This document shows, piece by piece, positions 5,286 through 62,852 of a stretch of DNA of 64,000 nt (within the stretch, counting starts at the first letter, position 1; each line of letters starts with the position of its first letter). The position numbers and the translations under genes were made by a program. The notes below the pieces were generated by a model, which was not told the DNA's origin, made no database searches, and saw nothing but the letters and a program-made list of their open reading frames with translations. Location of the stretch: contig CAZLQI010000006.1 in the NCBI GenBank assembly GCA_964561765.1, positions 3,297 through 67,296 of the forward strand, read 5' to 3'. The DNA is from an uncultured Chromatiales bacterium (GTDB lineage: Bacteria; Pseudomonadota; Gammaproteobacteria; DATFLL01).

Positions 5286-7964
5286 GTGGCCAGGGACACG
5301 GGAGCGGAATGTCGCATGCAACGCATCCTCATTATCGAGGCATCCACTACGCTGTCGCGTGTGCTGGAAGCCCAGATCACACCATACTATCCGATCGAGA
5401 TAATACGCTCGCACCGCGCCGGGCTGGCACGGCTGGCCGAGTCCACCGAGGCCTTTAGCGCTGTCGTGATGGGATGGCCGGAGGCCTCCGATCCGGTGAT
5501 CGAGGAGTGCCAGGCGTACTTGTCCGAGCGGTCCGCCTGGCAGCATCTGCCCCTCCTGGTGCTGAGCCATTCGGTGGATACACCGAGGCTGGACTGGGTT
5601 GCAGGTCGCCCGCATGGTGCGTTGCTGCACTGGGATGATTTTCGTGAGGTCGCGGCATTGCTGGACGGATTGCTGGATGCGTCCCTGGCGCTGGCGTCCA
5701 CGGTCGCCGGTCGCGATGAGCGTATTCGCGTGTTGTTTGTCGATGATTCGCGTACCGCGCGCGTGAAAATTCGTCGTCTTCTCGAAGCCGAAGGCTATGA
5801 TGTCGAGACAGCAGTCGATGCCGATGAGGCCCTGATGCGGGCCAGGCATCGGCACACGCGGGCGTTGCCTGCAGAGGAGGGCGAGGCAGGCGTGGCCGGT
5901 GATGAGACGGTGGAGCGCGCGGGCTTTGATATCGCCATCATCGATTACTTTATGCCGGGTGTCACTGGCGACAAGTTGTGTCGGCGCCTGCGCGCCGATC
6001 CGCGTACCAGCGGCATTACCACCGCCGTTTTTACCAGTACCTACCGGGACCAGATCATCACTGATTCATTGGCCGCCGGGGCGGTGGAGTGCATGTTCAA
6101 GAACGAGTCCGATGCCCTGTTTCTGGCCCGTGTTGCCGCGATGAGTCGCACGGTGCGCAGTACGCGGCGTATCGAGCATGAACGCAGTCGTTTGCAGGGC
6201 ATTCTGTCCTCGGTGGGTGATGGGGTATATGGGGTAGATCGCAACGGCATGCTCACCTTCATGAACCCGGCGGCATTGCGTATTCTGGGTTATGCACCGA
6301 AACAGGGGACGGATTTTATCGGGCGCTCGTCGAGTGTGGTGTTTCACCCCGATGCGCCGACTGTGGAGGGAAGCAGGTGTCCGTCCTGTGTCCCGCGACA
6401 GAGCGTGAAGGCGGCGCTGGCGCAGGAGTCAGTGTTCACACGCCATGATGGCACGGCGGTGCCAGTGGAACTGACTCTCTATCCGTTGTCCATCGGGGGC
6501 CGGGTTGAGGGGGCGGTCATCGCTTTTCGCGACATCCGCGTGCGCAAGCAGCTCGAAGATGAGTTGAGGTGGCAGGCCAGCCATGATCCGCTGACCCGTG
6601 TGTTCAACCGTAAGTATCTCGAAGATGCGCTCGAGCAGGAAGTCCGGCGGTTGCGTCGTGGGACTGAGGCCGGTGCATTATTGTATCTCGACCTGGACCG
6701 GTTCAAATATATCAATGACACTGCAGGCCATGCTGCGGGCGATCGCCTGTTGATCGAGATTGCCCGGCATCTGACGGGGCGGCTGCGCGAGACCGATCTG
6801 CTGGCGCGTATCGGTGGTGACGAATTTGCGCTGATTCTGCGCGGGGTGGGGCGTGAGGATGTATTCCAGGTCGCCGACGAGTTCCGGGCCTTGCTGACCG
6901 GGTATACCTTTTCGTATGAAGGGCGCAACTACAAGATCAATGGCAGCATTGGTGTCGCGCTGCTCGATCGACATATCGACAGTACGGCCCAGGCCCTGGC
7001 CAATGCCGATATCGCCTGTCACATTGCCAAGGGTCAGGGCCGCAACCAGACACACGTATTCCAGGCGGAGTGTGACGAGCGGGTTGCCATGGACCTGGAC
7101 CTCGGCTGGTCTACCCGGTTGCATACCGCCCTCGAAGAGGGTCTGTTTGAACTGTATTTTCAGCCCATCATACCGCTGGTGGCCATTGCGCGCGAGGACA
7201 TGGTGCGGCCAGGGTTGGTCGATGGGCGCTGGCAGCAATGGGCGCACGCCCATCCGGCGCAGCCGCCGGTCTATGAGGTGTTGATGCGACTGCCTGATGC
7301 ACGCGGTGAACTGATCTCGCCCAATGCCTTTATCCCCACCGCCGAGCGGTTCAATCTCATGCCGGCGATCGACCGCTGGGTGGTTGCCCGGGCCCTGAAG
7401 AAACTCACCGCATTGCATCGCCAGGGTCGGCGTGTGGTGTTCAGTATCAATCTTTCCAGCCAGAGCCTGGTCGACGCCGAACTGGCGGGGGTGTTGCGTG
7501 ATGCGCTGGCCGAGCCGGGGCTGGATGCCTCCTCGGTGGTATTGGAGATCACCGAGGAGGCATCCAGCCGTTGCCTGGACGCCGCGCAGCATTTTATCGA
7601 GGAATTCAGCGCGCTGGGTTGCCGGTTCGCTATGGATAACTTTGGCAGCGGCTCTTGTTCCTTCACGCATCTCAAGCACCTGGCAGTGGATTTCATCAAG
7701 ATCGACGCTCTGCTTACCCAAAGTATCGTCCATGATGCCACGGACCTTGCCATCATCCAGTCCATCACCGATATTGCCCACTCGCTGAACAAGCTCGTCG
7801 TCGCTGAGGCCGTAGAGTCGCCCGATATCTTGCAGGCACTCGTCGGCAGCGGAGTGGACTTCGTGCAGGGACGCCACCTGTGCCCACCTATTGCCGCCCT
7901 GCCGGGTCTTTGCGAGGGGGGGGAGATCGCTGAGGCGAAGGTTCACTATCGCCAGCGCCAATGA
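5286..7964 (+). CDS. Multidomain c-di-GMP signalling protein: pseudo-receiver + canonical receiver (REC) + PAS + GGDEF + EAL. Likely true start is MQRILII at 5316
   Basis: REC2 has DIAIIDYFMPGVTGDK (phospho-acceptor Asp). REC1 has AVVMGWPEAS with Gly at the acceptor position. PAS around SRLQGILSSVGDGVYGVDRNGMLTFMNPAA. GGDEF intact (RIGGDEFALIL). EAL domain has EVL in place of EAL, DNFGSG in place of DDFGTG, plus EITEE and KIDALL. Confidence 0.85.
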   Translation: MARDTGAECRMQRILIIEASTTLSRVLEAQITPYYPIEIIRSHRAGLARLAESTEAFSAVVMGWPEASDPVIEECQAYLSERSAWQHLPLLVLSHSVDTPRLDWVAGRPHGALLHWDDFREVAALLDGLLDASLALASTVAGRDERIRVLFVDDSRTARVKIRRLLEAEGYDVETAVDADEALMRARHRHTRALPAEEGEAGVAGDETVERAGFDIAIIDYFMPGVTGDKLCRRLRADPRTSGITTAVFTSTYRDQIITDSLAAGAVECMFKNESDALFLARVAAMSRTVRSTRRIEHERSRLQGILSSVGDGVYGVDRNGMLTFMNPAALRILGYAPKQGTDFIGRSSSVVFHPDAPTVEGSRCPSCVPRQSVKAALAQESVFTRHDGTAVPVELTLYPLSIGGRVEGAVIAFRDIRVRKQLEDELRWQASHDPLTRVFNRKYLEDALEQEVRRLRRGTEAGALLYLDLDRFKYINDTAGHAAGDRLLIEIARHLTGRLRETDLLARIGGDEFALILRGVGREDVFQVADEFRALLTGYTFSYEGRNYKINGSIGVALLDRHIDSTAQALANADIACHIAKGQGRNQTHVFQAECDERVAMDLDLGWSTRLHTALEEGLFELYFQPIIPLVAIAREDMVRPGLVDGRWQQWAHAHPAQPPVYEVLMRLPDARGELISPNAFIPTAERFNLMPAIDRWVVARALKKLTALHRQGRRVVFSINLSSQSLVDAELAGVLRDALAEPGLDASSVVLEITEEASSRCLDAAQHFIEEFSALGCRFAMDNFGSGSCSFTHLKHLAVDFIKIDALLTQSIVHDATDLAIIQSITDIAHSLNKLVVAEAVESPDILQALVGSGVDFVQGRHLCPPIAALPGLCEGGEIAEAKVHYRQRQ

Positions 7965-8661: not shown

Positions 8662-10005
8662 ATGTCCACGATGACGCCCCAGCAGATCGTCCATGAACTG
8701 GACAAATACATCGTCGGCCAGGCTGCCGCCAAGCGCGCCGTCGCCATTGCCCTGCGCAATCGCTGGCGTCGCAGTCAGGTAGACGAACAACTGCGCAACG
8801 AGATCACGCCGAAGAATATCCTGATGATCGGTCCCACCGGTGTGGGCAAGACCGAGATCGCCCGGCGCCTGGCACGCCTGGCCAATGCGCCCTTTATCAA
8901 GGTCGAGGCCACCAAGTTCACCGAAGTCGGTTATGTCGGGCGCGATGTGGAGTCGATCATCCGTGACCTGGCCGACCAGGCGGTGAAACTGACCCGCGAG
9001 CAGGAGATGGCCAAGGAACGCCAGCACGCCGAGGAGGCGGCCGAGGAACGCATTCTCGATATCCTGTTGCCAGCAGCGCGCAGTTTCGGTTTTGCCAATG
9101 AACCCGAGGAAGAGAAAACAGTCCCACCGAGCGCAACCCGGCAGAAATTTCGCAAGAAGCTGCGCGAGGGCGAACTCGACACAAGGGAAATCGAGGTGGA
9201 TCTGTCCAGCTCGACTCTGGGTGTGGAGATCATGGCCCCGCCGGGTATGGAGGAGATGACCGGCCAGTTGCAGAATATGTTCCAGAACCTCTCCGGCGGG
9301 CGCACGCGCAGTCGCAAGTTGCCTGTGCGCCAAGCCATGAAGTTGCTCATCGAAGAAGAGGCGGCCAAGCGGGTCAACGAGGAGGACATCAAGCTGAGTG
9401 CCATTCAGAGTGTGGAACAGGACGGCATCGTTTTTCTGGATGAGATGGACAAGATTGCCAAGCGTGGAGAGATCAGCGGCACAGATGTCTCGCGCGAAGG
9501 CGTGCAGCGCGATCTACTACCCCTGGTCGAGGGCAGCACGGTGACCACCAAGTACGGTATGGTGCGCACAGATCACATCCTGTTTATTGCCTCGGGTGCC
9601 TTCCACTTGGTCAAGCCGTCGGACCTCATCCCCGAGTTGCAGGGTCGTCTGCCTATCCGGGTGGAACTCGATGCCCTGGGCGCAGAGGACTTCGTGCGTA
9701 TCCTCACTGAGCCCGATGCCTCTCTGACTGAGCAGTACACCGCACTCCTGGCGACCGAGGGGGTGAGCGTGAGCTTTACCGAAGACGGTATCCGGCGCAT
9801 TGCCGAGGTGGCCTGTCAGGTCAATGAGCGCAGCGAGAATATCGGTGCGCGGCGTTTGCACACCGTGCTCGAACGTCTGCTCGAGGCGGTGTCGTTCGAG
9901 GCGACCGAGCGCGCTGGTCAGTCGGTGAGCGTGGACTGTGCCTATGTTGATACGCAGATCGGCGATTTGGTGCAGGATGAAGACCTGAGCCGTTATATTC
10001 TGTAA
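8662..10005 (+). CDS. hslU: ATP-dependent protease ATPase subunit HslU
   Basis: [34 protein letters not shown]...[19 protein letters not shown]; 447 aa; starts 3 nt after hslV. Confidence 0.95.
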
Positions 10006-21484: not shown

Positions 21485-21913
21485 ATGAGTCAATATATTA
21501 CTTTCGTGACCCAGAATTGGGAGTTGTTCCTGGCCCTGGTGGTGATCGTGGGCCTGTTGGCTGGTCACTCTTTCAGCAGCAGTCTGCGGGGTTACCGGAC
21601 GGTGACGCCACAAGAGGCCACACGGCTGATGAATCATGAAAACGCAGTGGTGATCGATGTCCGCGAGGCCAATGAATACCATAGTGGGCACATCATTAAT
21701 GCGCAGCATATCCCCCAGGGTCATGTGCGTGATCGCCTCGGCGAGCTGGAGAGGCACAAAGACAAACCCATCATCGTGGGGTGTCGGTCAGGACAGCGCT
21801 CGGGGCGGGTCTGTGGCCAATTGAAAAAGGCCGGTTTCGAGAAAGTGTATAACCTGGGCGGGGGCGTTCTCGCCTGGCAGAATGCAGGTTTGCCGTTGAG
21901 TAAAAAAAAGTAA
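21485..21913 (+). CDS. yibN: Membrane-anchored single-domain rhodanese (YibN-like)
   Basis: N-terminal TM helix (QNWELFLALVVIVGLLAGHSF); rhodanese fold with active-site loop IIVGCRSGQRSG; followed by grxC-secB-gpsA as in E. coli. Confidence 0.8.
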   Translation: MSQYITFVTQNWELFLALVVIVGLLAGHSFSSSLRGYRTVTPQEATRLMNHENAVVIDVREANEYHSGHIINAQHIPQGHVRDRLGELERHKDKPIIVGCRSGQRSGRVCGQLKKAGFEKVYNLGGGVLAWQNAGLPLSKKK

Positions 21914-32374: not shown

Positions 32375-32788
32375 ATGAACCTTCACATTGAAATCTCCGC
32401 GGGTGAATTGCTCGACAAGCTCACCATCCTTGATATCAAGTCCGAACGCATTGCCGACCCTGACAAACTGGTCAATGTGCGCAAGGAACGCTCCATGTTG
32501 CATGAAATCTGGTGCGCTGCCGACCCCGAGACCCTGCCAGCGGTCGCCGAACAGGCGCGACGCCTGAAGGCCATCAACGAACAGCTGTGGGACATCGAGG
32601 ACGCGATTCGGGCCAAGGAAGCAGCGGGCGCGTTCGATGACGCCTTCATCCAACTGGCGCGTGCGGTCTACATCACCAACGATGAGCGCGCCGCAGTCAA
32701 AAGGGCTGTCAATCTGGCGTTGGGTTCGGATCTGATCGAAGAGAAGTCGTATCAGCCTTATCATGCAGGCGGGCCGGGCGCGTCCTGA
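32375..32788 (+). CDS. Hypothetical small acidic protein, function unknown
   Basis: 137 aa ORF with good coding look; no recognised motif. Confidence 0.45.
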   Translation: MNLHIEISAGELLDKLTILDIKSERIADPDKLVNVRKERSMLHEIWCAADPETLPAVAEQARRLKAINEQLWDIEDAIRAKEAAGAFDDAFIQLARAVYITNDERAAVKRAVNLALGSDLIEEKSYQPYHAGGPGAS

Positions 32789-33159
32789 TTTCGCACCATC
32801 TGCCCGCCGTTTACCCGGTCACGCTGCGGGACCATTTTCCCAATGCCGAATTGACGCTCAGCGTTATCAGCCACTATCAACGCGGCACTCCGGAAGACCG
32901 GGTGGATCGGGTGCATGTCGTGCCCGGTCGCAAGGAAAAATCGAAGGTACGGGCGACACTGGCGGCGTATCGGGACCTGGGTGAGCAGGATGTATTGTTT
33001 GATCTGACGAGTACCGGCGCGATAGCGGTGTGTCAGAAGTCGAGGGGGTTGAGGCCGTAGTCGTGCGCCTGCTATCGGTGTGATGTCTCTTGCATGAGCT
33101 GGCTGGGACGTACCAGCGGTGGTGTCACCGCAAGGGAGGCCAGGGGGGGGCGTTTATCC

Positions 33160-33420
33160 GACTAACTGACAACTTCACGCCACTAATGGGGAGTAATATC
33201 GTATATATTCATATTTTTACACCAAATACACATATAAAGTCACTGATTGAGTTGTTTTATCTCACCATTGCGAGGCTGTCCGTGGGGTAATACGTATAAT
33301 ATTGATTATTTATAATAATGTGGATGATCGATCGATTTATTCTGGAATAAGAGGCCACATTATTGTAAGTGAATGCGTAAAAATACCCACATTGTGGGCT
33401 TTCTGTTAGGAAAGAAGGCG
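33160..33420. other. AT-rich (roughly 30% GC) island with nested inverted repeats and a G9 tract, upstream of the SPFH gene
   Basis: G9 at 33142-33150. 10-nt IR arms aataatgtgg (33314-33323) and ccacattatt (33355-33364) around atcgatcgat. cccaca t tgtggg at 33386-33398. Confidence 0.6.
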
Positions 33421-33536
33421 TTTTGTCTGTCTGCGCTCGGTGGGTCTGTCGAAGCAGGCAGGGCAATGGTCCTTCATCGTGCGCATCGATCACACCTAAT
33501 TACATCAACCATCGCTCATTGCTGAGGAGTTGCATT

Positions 33537-34484
33537 ATGCTGAATCTTGGGTTATCGGGTTTTCAAGGCTTTGTCATCCTGTTGCTGGTACTGGCCGTCG
33601 TACTGCTGATCATGGGCGTCAAATCGGTGCCGCAGGGCATGGAGTATACGGTGGAACGCTTTGGCCGCTACATGAGTACGCTCTCACCGGGGCTGAACAT
33701 CATCGTGCCGGTCATCGATCGCATCGGTGTGAGGCTCAACATGATGGAGACCGTGCTGGACGTGCCTTCGCAGGATGTCATTACCAAGGACAACGCCATG
33801 GTCACGGTCGATGGCGTCATCTTCTTCCAGGTGTTGGATGCCGCCAAGGCGGCCTACGAGGTCAACCAGCTGGAGCGGGCCATCCTCAATCTCGTTATAA
33901 CCAATATCCGCACGGTCATGGGCTCAATGGACCTCGACGAACTGCTCTCACAGCGCGACAAGATCAATATCAAGCTGCTGCACGTGGTCGATGATGCGAC
34001 CACGCCCTGGGGGGTGAAGGTCACGCGTATCGAGATCAAGGACATCACCCCGCCGCGCGACCTGATCGAGTCCATGGGACGTCAGATGAAGGCCGAGCGT
34101 GACAAGCGCGCCTCGATTCTGGTCGCCGAGGGCGCACGGCAGTCAGAAATTCTGCAGGCTGAAGGCAGAAAGCAGGCCGTTATCCTGGATGCCGAGGGTC
34201 GCAGAGAGGCGGCCTTTCGTGAGGCTGAGGCACGTGAGCGCCAGGCCGAGGCCGAGGCACGTGCCACGCAGATGGTCTCACAGGCCATCGAGAAGGGTGA
34301 TGTCAATGCCATCAATTACTTTGTCGCGCTGAAGTATATTGATGCCCTGCAGAATATCGCCATGGCGCCGAACGAAAAACTCGTGTTCATGCCATTGGAT
34401 GCCTCCGGTGTCATCGGTGCCCTGGGAGGGATTGGTGAGTTGGCCAAGCAGGCCATGGCCGGTAATAAAGGGGGTGCGGGGTAA
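33537..34484 (+). CDS. qmcA: SPFH/band-7 (stomatin-like, QmcA-type) membrane protein
   Basis: N-terminal TM, SPFH core (VPQGMEYTVERFGRY...ITKDNAMVTVDGVIFFQV), charged coiled C-terminus; GAGGAG SD 6 nt before ATG 33537. Confidence 0.85.
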   Translation: MLNLGLSGFQGFVILLLVLAVVLLIMGVKSVPQGMEYTVERFGRYMSTLSPGLNIIVPVIDRIGVRLNMMETVLDVPSQDVITKDNAMVTVDGVIFFQVLDAAKAAYEVNQLERAILNLVITNIRTVMGSMDLDELLSQRDKINIKLLHVVDDATTPWGVKVTRIEIKDITPPRDLIESMGRQMKAERDKRASILVAEGARQSEILQAEGRKQAVILDAEGRREAAFREAEARERQAEAEARATQMVSQAIEKGDVNAINYFVALKYIDALQNIAMAPNEKLVFMPLDASGVIGALGGIGELAKQAMAGNKGGAG

Positions 34485-34921
34485 TGAGCCACGTCACCTT
34501 CTGGCACTGGTGGATCGCCGCCCTGGTCCTGTTCGTGCTGGAGGCGCTCGCCCCAGGTGCCATCTTCCTATGGATGGGTGTGGCCGCCGGGGTGAGCGGT
34601 CTGGCACTGTACCTGATCCCGACCATGGGGTGGGACTATCAGGTATTGCTGTTCGCCCTCTTGTCGGTGGCCAGCATTATTGTGTGGCGAGCCTATCTGC
34701 ACCGCCACCCAACGGCCACTGATCGACCCACCCTGAATCGCCGGGGCGAGCAGTATGTCGGGCGGGTGTTCACGCTGGAGGAGCCCATTGTCAATGGCGA
34801 GGGTCAGATCCGCGTCGATGATTCCACCTGGAAGGTCCGGGGACAGGACTGCCCCCGTGGCAGTCGGGTGCGGGTGGTGGGTATCGATGGCGCGGTGCTG
34901 AGCATCAAGCCCGAGCCCTGA
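34484..34921 (+). CDS. NfeD-family membrane protein (YbbJ-like partner of SPFH)
   Basis: Two TM helices then OB-fold C-terminal region; start overlaps the qmcA stop. Confidence 0.8.
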   Translation: MSHVTFWHWWIAALVLFVLEALAPGAIFLWMGVAAGVSGLALYLIPTMGWDYQVLLFALLSVASIIVWRAYLHRHPTATDRPTLNRRGEQYVGRVFTLEEPIVNGEGQIRVDDSTWKVRGQDCPRGSRVRVVGIDGAVLSIKPEP

Positions 34922-35085
34922 ACTGGCAGAGCCCCGGCGACATGGTGCGCAAGGGGACGGTACGCGCACAGGTGTTATACTTTCAAGGTGGGTACGGTGC
35001 CCGGTGGGGCGGATTCACGAACTTGAATTTTACCGACAGTCGCGGGTCTGGCGACGGGTGTTCGTCTCTAACGGCGGGAACGGCC

Positions 35086-35511
35086 ATGGCTGATACACCG
35101 ATCAGGACTATCACACCTCACGAGGCGTGGGATATCATGGAGCACAATCCGCGAGCCCTGCTCATTGATGTGCGCTCGACCATGGAGTTTCTCTTCGTTG
35201 GTCACCCCAAGGGTGCCATTCATGTGCCCTGGATCGATGCCCCGGAGTGGACGATCAACCCCGAGTTCGTCGCCCAGGTACGCCAGATTATCCTGGGCGG
35301 GGTCGCCTACCACGGCGAGGGGGGTGTCCCTATCATTCTGATCTGCCGCAGTGGTCGCCGTTCCCTGGAGGCCGGAGCCCTGCTCGCAGACGAGGATTTT
35401 ACGGATATCTACAATGTCGAACACGGTTTCGAGGGGACGCTCGACGACACCCATCATCGCAGTTCCCTGGAGGGTTGGCGCAAGGAGGGTCTGCCCTGGG
35501 AGCAGTGTTAG
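35086..35511 (+). CDS. Single-domain rhodanese (sulfurtransferase), Rhd of the Rhd-TusA-DsrE2 type
   Basis: Start MADTPIRTITPHEAW; active-site loop ILICRSGRRS; C-terminal extension. Confidence 0.8.
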   Translation: MADTPIRTITPHEAWDIMEHNPRALLIDVRSTMEFLFVGHPKGAIHVPWIDAPEWTINPEFVAQVRQIILGGVAYHGEGGVPIILICRSGRRSLEAGALLADEDFTDIYNVEHGFEGTLDDTHHRSSLEGWRKEGLPWEQC

Positions 35512-35543
35512 CTTATTTAATTCCTTATTGATTTTCAATACGA

Positions 35544-35562
35544 TAGCCTGATTATCAGGCTA
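35544..35562. promoter_or_regulatory. Perfect 9-1-9 palindrome TAGCCTGAT-T-ATCAGGCTA, about 20 nt upstream of a TTGACA -35 (35580-35585)
   Basis: Read directly; lies in the AT-rich gap before the DsrE2-like gene. Confidence 0.45.
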
Positions 35563-35641
35563 AATTTAAAGTGGCTCACTTGACAAGTCATACGTATGTC
35601 TTACTTTTGAGATATCCCTCCCTCTTGAAGGAGATCATACG

Positions 35642-36106
35642 ATGGACAAGAAACTCGGTATTATTGCCACCAAAGGCACACTCGACTGGGCCTATCCCCC
35701 CTTCATCCTGGCCTCCACGGCCGCTGCCCTCGGTTATGAGGTGCGCATGTTTTGTACCTTTTACGGCCTTGAATTGTTGAAGAAGAAGCTCGATCTCAAG
35801 GTCACCTCGGTAGGCAATCCCGGTATGCCCATGCCGATGCCCATGCCGGTGATGCTACAGGCCCTGCCGGGCATGCAGGGCATGATGACCGTGATGATGA
35901 AAAAGAGGATGAAGGGCAAAGGTGTGGCCAGCATTGAAGAACTGCGCAGTCTGTGTATCGAGGCCGATGTGAAACTACTGGCGTGCCAGATGACGGTGGA
36001 CCTGTTTGATATGCCGCGTGAGGCGTTCATCGATGGGCTGGACTATGTGGGGGCGGCGAGCTTCCTGGAATTTGCTGGCGAATCCGACGTGTGCCTGTTT
36101 ATTTGA
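35642..36106 (+). CDS. DsrE/DsrF-like family protein, DsrE2-type (sulfur relay)
   Basis: 154 aa; GIIATKGTLDWAYPPFILASTAAALGYEVRMFCTFYGL... with conserved Cys; Met/Pro-rich insert (PGMPMPMPMPVML). Confidence 0.65.
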   Translation: MDKKLGIIATKGTLDWAYPPFILASTAAALGYEVRMFCTFYGLELLKKKLDLKVTSVGNPGMPMPMPMPVMLQALPGMQGMMTVMMKKRMKGKGVASIEELRSLCIEADVKLLACQMTVDLFDMPREAFIDGLDYVGAASFLEFAGESDVCLFI

Positions 36107-36234
36107 GGCCGGCTAGAGGGTGCAGCGGCCCCCTCCCAGTGTGGCGTAACCACCGTGATGCGTTCAGGGGGGGGCGGATCTGCGCGTTATCTCCACGGCG
36201 AAGTGGGTAAATGCCGGATGAGCTGCGCCCTCGG

Positions 36235-36288
36235 CGTGTCATGGTTGTCTGCGAGTTCTTCGTGTCATCGCCGTGTCATGCAGTGACA
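36235..36288. promoter_or_regulatory. Three direct CGTGTCAT repeats (36235, 36261, 36272) ending in palindrome TGTCA-TGCAG-TGACA; candidate TetR operator
   Basis: Read directly, about 100 nt upstream of the tetR-family gene. Confidence 0.4.
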
Positions 36289-36394
36289 GGGTGCTGCCCG
36301 ACGCCAAAGGGTTCAGTCGATGCGTGGCCTGGGATACACTGTGGCTGTTAGCGTAAACGGGCCCCTGGGGCGGCAGTGCCGCGGATGAACGCCG

Positions 36395-37003
36395 ATGACC
36401 GAGACTGGCAGAAGACAGACACCGCGTGCCGTGCGCGGGCAGCAATGCCGCCAGCGTATTGTCGAGGCCGCCGATACGCTGTTCTATCAGCGTGGTTATA
36501 ACCAGAGCAGCTTTAGCGAGGTCGCCGAGGCCGCAGCGGTGCCACGGGGCAACTTCTACTACTACTTCAAGAGCAAGGACGCGCTGCTGGGTGCCGTCAT
36601 CGACTACCGAATCGAGGGCATCCGCAGCATGCTTGATGAATGGGAACACACTATTTCTACTCCCCTGGATCGGCTCAAACGCTATGTGCATATCCTGCTC
36701 AATGCCGAGGGCGACATCCTGCGCTACGGCTGTCCGATGGGCTCGCTCAACGTCGAGCTGTCCAAGACCCAGCAGGTGCAGCAATCCCGGGCGCGGGACA
36801 TGTTTGAGGTGTTTCGTGACTTTATCACCCGCCAGTTCCGCACCCTGGCACCCACGCGTATCGATGCGGCAAGGGCCGATGAGTACGCCTTGCACTTACT
36901 GGCGGTGAGCCAGGGCGTGAGTCTTATCACCAACGTCTATATCGACCCCGGATTTCTGCGCCAGGAGGTGCAGCGGCTTTGCGACTGGCTGGACAGCCTC
37001 TAG
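36395..37003 (+). CDS. TetR/AcrR-family transcriptional regulator
   Basis: N-terminal HTH (RIVEAADTLFYQRGYNQSSFSEVAEAAAVPRGNFYYYFKSKDALL). Confidence 0.85.
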   Translation: MTETGRRQTPRAVRGQQCRQRIVEAADTLFYQRGYNQSSFSEVAEAAAVPRGNFYYYFKSKDALLGAVIDYRIEGIRSMLDEWEHTISTPLDRLKRYVHILLNAEGDILRYGCPMGSLNVELSKTQQVQQSRARDMFEVFRDFITRQFRTLAPTRIDAARADEYALHLLAVSQGVSLITNVYIDPGFLRQEVQRLCDWLDSL

Positions 37004-37150
37004 ACGAGGTCAGTGTGCAGGTTACGTGTGGCACAGGAAAAGGTCCGTCCTCCGCGCGAGCACGGCGTGGTACACTTGGCACCCAGGCCGGCTTGGTCTG
37101 TGCATCCATTTTCCTCACACATCCCGACAACTTCCGGTACAGAAACCACG

Positions 37151-40837
<3,687 letters not shown>

Positions 40838-60852: not shown

Positions 60853-61470
60853 ATGGAATTGGTGAGTGCATATTGGCCCTGGTGGATCGGTGCCCTGGCA
60901 CTGGGTGGCATCACCATCGGATTTACCCTCAGCATTGGCCGCCCTCTGGGTGTCTCAGGCAGTTGGGCCAAGGTCGTTGGCTGGCGTGAGGAGCGCAAGC
61001 TGGGCAAGGCTGCAGAGGGTTTGCAGCCAGGTTCGCAGATGGCCCACGATGCCTTTCTCGAAGCCACCCTGGCCGAGTTTGGTGAAGGCGCTGATAACGC
61101 TGGCACCGCTGCACAGACACCTGCCCGGAACACGACAGCGCTCAACATCCCCTGGACGGTGCATCTCGTGTTCCTGTTCTGCACGTTTCTGGGTGCCTTT
61201 TTGGCCACCTATTATGTGGGCAACTTCCATGTGCATTTCGAGCTCAGCGCGCTTTTCACTCGCTTTGCCGGTGGCCAATGGCAGAGTTTGGTGGCCTTGT
61301 TGCTCGGTGGCATGATGGTCGGTTTTGGTACGCAGATGGCGGGGGGATGCACCTCCGGGCATGGCCTGAGTGGGTGTTCGCGCTTGGTGCCGGCCAGTTT
61401 GTTGGCTACCCTCAGTTTCTTTGGTATGGCCGTTGCCGTGTCATTCTTTGTGGAGGTGCTGGCGAGATGA
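60853..61470 (+). CDS. YeeE/YedE-family sulfur-transport membrane protein, N-terminal half
   Basis: FGTQMAGGCTSGHGLSG motif; TM-rich. Confidence 0.75.
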   Translation: MELVSAYWPWWIGALALGGITIGFTLSIGRPLGVSGSWAKVVGWREERKLGKAAEGLQPGSQMAHDAFLEATLAEFGEGADNAGTAAQTPARNTTALNIPWTVHLVFLFCTFLGAFLATYYVGNFHVHFELSALFTRFAGGQWQSLVALLLGGMMVGFGTQMAGGCTSGHGLSGCSRLVPASLLATLSFFGMAVAVSFFVEVLAR

Positions 61471-61892
61471 AGAGCAACGTGCTGAGATTCTATCTGCTCT
61501 ACGGCCTGTTCGGTCTGCTCATGGGCGCGACCCTTGCACGCACCGGTTTTGGTAGCTATGACCAGGTCCACCGCATGTTTATCTTCACCAATCTGCGACT
61601 GCTCTACACGTTCGGCGGTGCAGTGTTATTTGCCGGCGCAGCGTTTGCCGTGTTGCGCAAACACCTGCCCCACCAGAACAAGATACTGCAGCCGGGCACA
61701 GTGCCTGGCAGCATGTTGTTTGGCGCCGGCTGGGCTATTTGCGGGGCCTGTCCCAGCATCGTCTTCGTACAACTCGGCCAGGGCCGCCTGCCTGCGGTGA
61801 TGACGCTGTTCGGTATCGTTCTCGGTATCATTTTGCATAAGTGGGCGCATGCGCGGTTTTTCCACTGGGATACTGGTACCTGCGGTGTCTAG
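61467..61892 (+). CDS. YeeE/YedE-family membrane protein, C-terminal half
   Basis: GAGWAICGACPS motif; overlaps the previous gene by ATGA. Confidence 0.75.
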   Translation: MKSNVLRFYLLYGLFGLLMGATLARTGFGSYDQVHRMFIFTNLRLLYTFGGAVLFAGAAFAVLRKHLPHQNKILQPGTVPGSMLFGAGWAICGACPSIVFVQLGQGRLPAVMTLFGIVLGIILHKWAHARFFHWDTGTCGV

Positions 61893-61958: not shown

Positions 61959-62852
61959 CTATTTTGTCCGGTGTTTTTTGTCCAGCATCTCCTCGATGAG
62001 GGGACCGAGAATGATCTCCATGGCGAACCCCATCTTGCCACCGGGTACCACCAGGATGTTGGGGCGCGACATGAACGAGTCCTGGATCATGCTTTGCATA
62101 TAGGGGAAATCGACGCCCTTGGGGTCGCGGAAGCGGATGACCACAAAACTTTCGTCCGGCGTGGGGATGTCGCGGGCGATGAACGGGTTGGAGGTGTCGA
62201 CGGTGGGTACGCGCTGGAAGTTGATGTCGGCGAGAGAGAACTGCGGGGTGATGTAGTTCACATAGTCAGGCATGCGGCGCAGGATGGTATCGACGGTGGC
62301 CGCGGCGGAGTAGCCGCGTTCGGAGGCATCGCGGTGGATCTTCTGGATCCATTCGAGATTGACAATCGGTACGACACCGACGAGTAGGTCAGTGTGTCTG
62401 GCCGCGTTCACCTTGCCATCGACTACACCACCATGCAGACCTTCATAAAAGAGCAGATCAGTGTCTTTGGGAATGTCTTCCCAGGGTGTGAATTCGCCGG
62501 GTGCGAGGGTGGTACCCAGACGGGCATTATGTTCATCGGCCTCTTCTTCGCTGTGCAGATAATAGCGACGTTGACACAGACCGTTCTTGCCATAGGCCTT
62601 GAAGGTCTCTTCGAGGGCCTCGAACAGATTGGCCTCGGGACCGAAGTGGCTGTAAAAATTATTGCCTGCGTCAGAGGCCTTTTTCATCGCTGCCTTCATC
62701 TCGACGCGATTGTAGCGATGGTAGCTGTCACCCTCGATGATGGCAGGGGTGATGCCCTCGCGGCGAAAGATGTGTTCGAAGGCGCGCTTGACCGTTGTGG
62801 TACCGGCCCCGGAGGAACCGGTGACGACGACGATAGGATATCTTTTTGACAT
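61959..62852 (-). CDS. prk: Phosphoribulokinase (Calvin cycle)
   Basis: MSKRYPIVVVTGSSGAGTTTV...; 297 aa; classic bacterial PRK. Confidence 0.9.
   Translation of the reverse strand: MSKRYPIVVVTGSSGAGTTTVKRAFEHIFRREGITPAIIEGDSYHRYNRVEMKAAMKKASDAGNNFYSHFGPEANLFEALEETFKAYGKNGLCQRRYYLHSEEEADEHNARLGTTLAPGEFTPWEDIPKDTDLLFYEGLHGGVVDGKVNAARHTDLLVGVVPIVNLEWIQKIHRDASERGYSAAATVDTILRRMPDYVNYITPQFSLADINFQRVPTVDTSNPFIARDIPTPDESFVVIRFRDPKGVDFPYMQSMIQDSFMSRPNILVVPGGKMGFAMEIILGPLIEEMLDKKHRTK

Follow-up and report, generated by a model that had tools for sequence, protein, structure and literature searches.

Introduction

In Allochromatium vinosum, the genes for a rhodanese (Rhd_2599), TusA and the sulfur carrier DsrE2 form a contiguous three-gene module (Alvin_2599-2601), which has syntenic copies in other sulfur oxidizers. 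The DsrE2A subgroup, whose prototype is Alvin_2601, is characterized by "two strictly conserved cysteines" (PMC4175335) and occurs in 87% of sHdr-containing assemblies, while TusA occurs in 387 of 397 such assemblies (PMC11094781). This paper discusses a stretch of 64,000 nucleotides (nt) from an uncultured Chromatiales bacterium (contig CAZLQI010000006.1; the whole stretch is called the window hereafter), in which a dsrE2 gene follows a rhodanese gene of another family and no tusA gene lies beside them, focusing primarily on the pair formed by this rhodanese of 141 amino acids (aa), called Rhd141 here, and DsrE2. The gene order is SPFH, NfeD, rhodanese, DsrE2, TetR-family regulator and metH, with the open reading frames (ORFs) lying where a preliminary description of the window had placed them. 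The first four ORFs are genuine genes and all the parts are members of known families (Table 1), and only the gene arrangement constitutes a modest, testable variant.

Three other described systems are close to parts of the locus. The dsrE3A-dsrE2B-tusA cluster of Metallosphaera cuprina and the Sulfolobales likewise encodes DsrE-fold carriers together with other sulfur transferases, and the closest solved structure to the window DsrE2 is a DsrE2B homologue (2QS7, E=6e-16). That cluster, however, is archaeal, lies beside hdr genes and includes TusA, and DsrE2B has one conserved cysteine and showed no reactivity in vitro. Rhodaneses of the Rv0390/Ab-RLD group are characterized by a CRSG/AxR loop and by extra α4 and C-terminal loops, and their genes are typically found beside those of O-succinylhomoserine sulfhydrylase, cysteine synthase, glutamine synthetase or desulfurase encapsulin; the encapsulin-associated Ab-RLD, the one protein of this type with known biochemistry, is a thiosulfate sulfurtransferase which carries persulfide and thiosulfate (PMC10925157). 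The third is the QmcA-YbbJ stomatin cage of Escherichia coli (PDB 8Z5G).

DsrE2 and the Preceding Rhodanese

The protein of 154 aa, which the preliminary description had called DsrE2-like, is a genuine DsrE2A-type carrier by the evidence of its sequence. The call stands because DsrE-family profiles match the protein: its residues 2-154 align with positions 3-159 of NF047629, the NCBIfam equivalog model for the "sulfur carrier protein DsrE2", with a score above the cutoff of 210 bits, and PF13686 matches as well. Both family cysteines are present, Cys105 being kept in 113 and Cys115 in all of 115 aligned DsrE2 sequences, and Cys115 aligns with a cysteine of 2QS7 and of 3PNX. Many gammaproteobacterial proteins share 78-82% identity with it, and tusA-linked copies 82%. 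In two close relatives (L089 and L092; the loci compared are given L numbers), dsrE2 lies directly downstream of tusA and beside soxXYZA, whereas no sox or dsr gene is near the dsrE2 of the window. Two other DsrE2 proteins (P0058 and P0074, 79-80% identical to that of the window) are labelled at NCBI as coming from "Kaarinaea lacus", a cyanobacterium (Nostocales); probably the assembly is not axenic and the contigs belong to an associated gammaproteobacterium.

DsrE2 contains a segment rich in methionine and proline (PGMPMPMPMPV), which had been taken for an unusual insert. The family alignment rules this out: GNPGMPMPMPMPV...ALPGMQ does not vary among the 13 closest homologues, the segment is common to the tusA-linked DsrE2 proteins of Ectothiorhodospira, Thioalkalivibrio and Thiohalomonas, and across 115 DsrE2 sequences the region falls into three length classes (short, as in the window, and longer by about 4 or by 13 residues). 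The segment is a variable hallmark of the family and not peculiar to the window gene. This part of DsrE2 has been described as a transmembrane hairpin (PMC12998232), which others doubt (PMC11094781); in the window protein, the Kyte-Doolittle maximum over 19 residues is 1.26 as against a transmembrane threshold of 1.6. An AlphaFold2 model computed from a 13-sequence alignment had a mean pLDDT of 59, with residues 40-82 below 50, values too low for fold searches or for conclusions on the insert.

The maximal ORF of the rhodanese (34942-35511, 189 aa) matches PF00581 with E=8e-13. Because the homologues are 139-145 aa long and align from the methionine at 35086, the true start is most likely the ATG at this position; the start of the 189-aa ORF is too early and that of the public gene call of 124 aa (start 35137) is 17 codons too late as compared with the homologues. 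The protein has the active-site loop C87-RSGRRS, an HHRS motif and a C-terminal LPWEQC. All 82 relatives have CRSGxRS (in nearly all of them CRSG[KR]RS) and end in LPWxQC followed by the stop codon, so the cysteine is the last residue whether or not dsrE2 adjoins.

The closest solved relatives of Rhd141 are Rv0390 of Mycobacterium tuberculosis (2FSX, E=9e-25) and Ab-RLD of Acinetobacter baumannii (8W14, E=3e-21). Residues 8-140 align with both, that is, the similarity is full-length and extends across the α4 and C-terminal loop regions, and the CRSGxR loop is shared. Sulfur-assimilation or methionine genes as neighbors are another likeness, the neighbor here being metH; the Rhd141 type adjoins metH repeatedly (the window, L100, L121, L163 and L174), which echoes the O-succinylhomoserine sulfhydrylase linkage of the M. 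tuberculosis relative. The Rhd141 subfamily differs from the known group in its invariant LPWEQC end, in the lack of the N-terminal helix of Ab-RLD and in its linkages, which are to dsrE2 (45% of the assessable loci), lpxL-like and ttcA-like genes and sometimes nfeD, whereas linkage to encapsulin, MetZ or glutamine synthetase belongs to the known group.

In contrast, Rhd141 is only 26-30% identical (E 1e-6 to 1e-10) to the rhodaneses of about 105 aa encoded upstream of tusA-dsrE2. This low identity and the Rv0390/Ab-RLD membership rule out Rhd141 as the Rhd_2599 orthologue. Hence the resemblance to the Rhd-TusA-DsrE2 unit of purple sulfur bacteria, on which the preliminary description had relied, holds for DsrE2 and fails for the rhodanese. 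A second rhodanese of the window, 112 aa long, is 41-53% identical to the tusA-dsrE2-linked rhodaneses (top 13 matches, E 1e-29 to 1e-37) and, from this similarity, is likely the Rhd_2599 orthologue, detached from dsrE2 and located 6.3 kb downstream. Its gene is isolated, with an HNH gene on one side and FHA/AAA genes on the other, inside a cluster of FHA-domain genes (about 40.9-46.3 kb). A third rhodanese (about 21485-21913, plus strand, 142 aa) has a hydrophobic N-terminus and is followed by glutaredoxin, secB and gpsA genes, with an ArsR/HTH_5 regulator gene upstream.

Absence of TusA

There is no TusA-like ORF in either of the gaps flanking dsrE2 (130 nt, 35512-35641, and 288 nt, 36107-36394). 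When the whole window was scanned in all six frames for C[PA]xP, nothing resembling TusA emerged, and tblastn searches of the window with TusA of E. coli and with two TusA proteins linked to dsrE2 gave nothing better than E of about 0.1. The search is sensitive enough, because with the E. coli protein as query it detects tusA directly upstream of dsrE2 in 62 of 80 genomic loci. The statement in the preliminary description that no tusA lies beside the pair was thus confirmed, and the gaps hold neither a mis-called tusA nor the remnant of one, either of which would show as a CPxP ORF or a tblastn signal.

Consequently, the contiguous three-gene module is not found at this locus, since tusA is absent and the adjoining rhodanese is of another family. 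Common to the locus and to Alvin_2599-2601 are a DsrE2 of one family, with both cysteines and the Met/Pro-rich segment, and a rhodanese gene preceding dsrE2 in the same orientation. Apart from tusA and the rhodanese family, with the Rhd_2599-like protein encoded at a distance, the window differs in that its dsrE2 has a putative promoter of its own and a TetR gene downstream.

Recurrence of the Rhodanese-dsrE2 Pair

The pairing of an Rhd141-type rhodanese with DsrE2 recurs. A survey of 80 metagenomic loci (L093-L172) with rhodaneses 56-67% identical to Rhd141 included 65 loci with enough downstream sequence, and in 29 of these dsrE2 lies directly downstream of the rhodanese gene in the same orientation; in the sequence fetched, the dsrE2-containing loci gave no TusA match. 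The same rhodanese-dsrE2 order is seen on a 1.3-Mb contig (L180). The only close relative of the window is L088 (DsrE2 92% and UbiB 89% identical), where the order is likewise SPFH (partial), NfeD, rhodanese, DsrE2 and TetR.

The DsrE2 proteins linked to Rhd141 in the metagenomic loci constitute a distinct subfamily, 59-65% identical to the window protein. Its members (L097-L171; for example L109 5665-6270 and L180 8671-9279) are about 197-202 aa long, begin with a conserved extension of about 38 aa (..QLDAWLDKKLDELLPKKLEEI..) and have a Met/Pro segment 13 residues longer, while the DsrE2 proteins of the window and L088 fall within the short-insert clade, most of whose remaining members are linked to tusA. 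That two DsrE2 subfamilies thus occupy one slot beside Rhd141 is the main argument for a functional pairing. Furthermore, two large Rhd141 clades retain the pairing in all of their assessable members.

A Candidate dsrE2 Promoter and the TetR Regulator

The spacer between the rhodanese gene and dsrE2 has diverged between the window and L088 save for one block, which consists of TTGACA, AGTCA[T/G]ACGTAT.. and TAC[T/A]TT. This block may be read as a candidate promoter with a -35 element, a spacer of 16 nt and a weak -10 element. The spacer is taken up by a near-perfect palindrome, AGTCATACGTATGTCT (35586-35601), which is a candidate operator for TetR; a site of this type occurs once in the window. 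Half-sites of the GTCAKAC type are present at most 160 nt upstream of dsrE2 in all six TetR-linked loci and in none of 27 Rhd141-linked dsrE2 loci without TetR, although the pattern was derived after viewing the data and the count is therefore a lead and not a proof. A promoter and terminator scan of 32700-37200 yielded about as many calls as shuffled sequence does, and the candidate promoter was not among them. A perfect 8+1+8 palindrome, AGCCTGAT-T-ATCAGGCT, located 34 nt past the rhodanese stop codon, is possibly a hairpin at the end of a transcript; it is followed by no T-run, is not kept in L088 and was not called by the terminator scan.

Homologous TetR-family genes follow dsrE2 in the window, L088, L094, L009, L057 and L173, which span all three insert classes of DsrE2. 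The regulators of L088, L009, L057 and L094 are 40-75% identical to that of the window. The motif [RT][YW]GCPxG was found in all five TetR sequences read (window, L009, L057, L094 and L173), and it is a speculation that its cysteine senses sulfane sulfur. The closest solved structure is the uncharacterized 3DPJ. From the promoter-like block and the conserved neighbor we infer that dsrE2 may be a separately transcribed gene repressed by TetR. Side by side with these genes, a protein of 143-145 aa without a Pfam match is encoded after the dsrE2-linked TetR gene in L009 (7325-7762), L057 (about 7479-7898) and L173 (4044-4475); a 46%-identical copy is present in L005 (about 8729-9166) and none in the window.

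A Possible Sulfur Relay

These observations can be combined into a persulfide relay from the rhodanese to DsrE2 under TetR control, a reading which we regard as quite possible without calling it probable. Rhd141 would form a persulfide at Cys87 with sulfane sulfur drawn from thiosulfate, glutathione persulfide or polysulfide and would hand this sulfur, possibly via the C-terminal Cys141, to Cys115 or Cys105 of DsrE2, this direction being the one we infer. DsrE2 would in turn supply TusA and the Dsr or sHdr oxidation machinery, all of them presumably encoded elsewhere in the genome, and TetR, bound to the palindrome that separates the -35 element from the -10 element, would repress dsrE2.

Several points weigh against such a relay. 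We know of no experiment that ties an Rhd141-type rhodanese to DsrE2. Among the assessable Rhd141 loci, 36 of 65 are without dsrE2, and L009, L057 and L173 have dsrE2-tetR but no rhodanese. The gap between the rhodanese gene and dsrE2 is 130 nt in the window and about 235 nt (median) elsewhere, with a range of 130-270 nt; because of these wide gaps and the apparent promoter of dsrE2 itself, co-transcription is unlikely. The neighbors in synteny are housekeeping genes (ntrYX, trkAH, lpxL-like, PP-loop/TtcA-like, pip, dtd, cco and metH), so the adjacency may be inherited synteny, and in some relatives the backbone is bare, with rhd141 and metH following an lpxL-like gene on the opposite strand. 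No dsr, shdr, sox or tusA gene was found in about 73 kb, which comprise the window and about 9 kb past its right edge, the latter being housekeeping (purH, fis, dusB, prmA and accBC); the search past the left edge was limited by contigs that break about 1.1 kb beyond. Finally, the function of DsrE2A itself has been described as unclear (PMC11094781).

The main rival, and a strong one, is therefore adjacency without shared function: Rhd141 would be an assimilatory or housekeeping enzyme which supplies sulfide or persulfide to the biosynthesis of methionine or thio-cofactors, and a self-contained dsrE2 module regulated by TetR would, in this lineage, have been inserted between rhd141 and metH. 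The bare order, found in L174, L100, L121 and L163 without dsrE2, tetR or SPFH-NfeD, agrees with this explanation, as do the PP-loop (TtcA-like) gene located divergently upstream in many loci and the dsrE2-tetR modules and apparent dsrE2 promoter mentioned above; the characterized relatives, too, are linked to O-succinylhomoserine sulfhydrylase, cysteine synthase or desulfurase encapsulin (PMC10925157). It accounts less well for two dsrE2 subfamilies having reached the same position and orientation beside Rhd141, or for a pairing kept throughout two large clades, which goes beyond the expectation for a single random insertion; general synteny, however, is equally conserved in those clades. On balance, adjacency without shared function is a serious possibility, if a somewhat doubtful one.

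A further alternative is that the pair is a complete, TusA-independent relay in which Cys141, at the flexible C-terminus of Rhd141, would take over the shuttling otherwise done by TusA. The terminal position of the cysteine in all 82 family members and the lack of a TusA match in any Rhd141-dsrE2 locus or in the 73 kb examined here agree with this. The cysteine is, however, equally invariant in members unlinked to dsrE2, TusA is near-universal in sulfur oxidizers (PMC11094781) and can act in trans, and the absence of tusA refers to those 73 kb, so that a relay independent of TusA is improbable.

The SPFH-NfeD Pair

The two genes upstream of Rhd141 had been described as an SPFH-NfeD pair, correctly so: the proteins match chain A ("Protein QmcA", E=7e-121) and chain B ("YbbJ", E=7e-25) of 8Z5G, and the SPFH stop codon overlaps the NfeD start codon (TAATG). 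The SPFH protein has an N-terminal transmembrane anchor (hydropathy peak 2.93, residues 1-35) and its ATG is preceded by the ribosome-binding site GAGGAG, while NfeD has three hydrophobic segments followed by a C-terminal NfeD/OB domain. Orthology to the E. coli proteins is clear, the domain layout is equal and the genes are coupled; the proteins themselves do not differ, and only the downstream neighbor, the rhodanese, is unusual. Thus, qmcA-ybbJ is an ordinary, translationally coupled stomatin-cage operon, and the locus consists of two neighboring units, this operon and a cytoplasmic sulfur-carrier set (rhodanese, DsrE2 and TetR).

The preliminary description had suggested that the pair scaffolds the sulfur relay at the membrane. 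An NfeD gene, or a remnant encoding only its transmembrane part, is located upstream of Rhd141 in about 6-7 of the 80 related loci. SPFH, NfeD and Rhd141 abut in L106, and NfeD precedes Rhd141 with a gap of about 385 nt in L124 and of about 1 kb in L114; in L094 the order is Rhd141, an MCP gene and then SPFH-NfeD-DsrE2-TetR, with Rhd141 3.9 kb upstream. Genes of 90 aa in L095 (1648-1905), L128 (921-1193) and L163 (269-541) correspond to the transmembrane part of NfeD alone, without the OB domain and without an SPFH partner, and lie 25-55 nt upstream of Rhd141.

That the QmcA/YbbJ cage scaffolds a rhodanese-DsrE2 relay would agree with these linked cases, which are scattered across the Rhd141 tree, with the combination seen in L094, with the proposal that DsrE2A is a membrane anchor (PMC11094781) and with the nearest characterized rhodanese working with a different protein cage, encapsulin. 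The linkage is nevertheless rare. None of the other 29 Rhd141-dsrE2 pairs has SPFH or NfeD nearby in the sequence fetched, none of the 80 genomic dsrE2 loci has them within 6 kb, and even in the window the gap between NfeD and the rhodanese is 164 nt. Moreover, the hydropathy maxima of DsrE2 (given above) and Rhd141 (1.51) are below transmembrane level, and QmcA-YbbJ is a ubiquitous housekeeping pair. A literature search on NfeD, stomatin and rhodanese returned nothing relevant. The SPFH-NfeD linkage thus concerns the rhodanese and not DsrE2; though real, it is sporadic and falls short of establishing a relay on a scaffold, a suggestion which is weak and improbable.

The most far-reaching form of these ideas would make Rv0390/Ab-RLD-type rhodaneses with the invariant C-terminal cysteine dedicated DsrE2 donors, that is, a TusA-independent entry to dissimilatory sulfur oxidation, which in some lineages is docked to the QmcA/YbbJ (NfeD) cage and is switched by a sulfane-sensing TetR repressor; this is a long shot.

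Other Genes in the Window and the Source Organism

The features are listed in Table 1. The window has matching contigs in the metagenome assembly GCA_006240815.1 and in several SRA runs. Among named organisms, the UbiB proteins most similar to that of the window (69-70% identity at most) are those of Inmirania thermothiophila and Thiohalobacter, both sulfur-oxidizing autotrophs. A phosphoribulokinase and a split pair of YeeE/YedE-type transporter proteins are also encoded, which hints at autotrophy and the uptake of sulfur compounds; together with the UbiB similarity, these predicted proteins make it plausible that the source organism is an autotrophic sulfur oxidizer. The YeeE/YedE-type pair (PF04143 Sulf_transp) is located at 60853-61470 and 61467-61892 on the plus strand, listed together with 61959-62852 on the minus strand; it has no TusA/YeeD-like partner and adjoins genes for an ankyrin-repeat protein and the phosphoribulokinase.

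Table 1. Coordinates of the features discussed, given as positions in the window
Feature	Length	Position	Strand	Evidence
SPFH/stomatin-family gene, E. coli QmcA orthologue	315 aa	33537-34484	+	PF01145 E=2.4e-33
Short NfeD gene, E. coli YbbJ orthologue	145 aa	34484-34921	+	PF01957 E=5e-14
Single-domain rhodanese Rhd141, Rv0390/Ab-RLD type	141 aa	35086-35511	+	PF00581
Perfect 8+1+8 palindrome		35545-35561	n/a	read from sequence
Candidate dsrE2 promoter TTGACA-N16-TACTTT		35580-35607	+	conserved block versus L088
DsrE2A-type sulfur carrier	154 aa	35642-36106	+	NF047629 273.7 bits; PF13686 E=9.6e-52, full length
TetR-family regulator, RYGCPMG motif	202 aa	36395-37003	+	PF00440 E=1e-15
metH, cobalamin-dependent methionine synthase		37151-40837
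Second rhodanese, likely Rhd_2599-type orthologue	112 aa	42456-42794	+	PF00581 E=4e-17

Concluding Remarks

As compared with the literature searched, two things are new: the recurrent adjacency, without TusA, of DsrE2 with a rhodanese of the Rv0390/Ab-RLD type, and the conserved dsrE2-tetR module with its candidate operator. Should the adjacency be nothing more than synteny, the locus is an ordinary one. To our knowledge, no specific donor or regulator is known for DsrE2A. A second rhodanese family which is recurrently paired with DsrE2 without TusA is therefore a concrete donor candidate, the conserved TetR gene with its operator-like palindrome offers a handle on the regulation of dsrE2, and the sporadic NfeD linkage bears on the long-standing idea of DsrE2 acting at the membrane.

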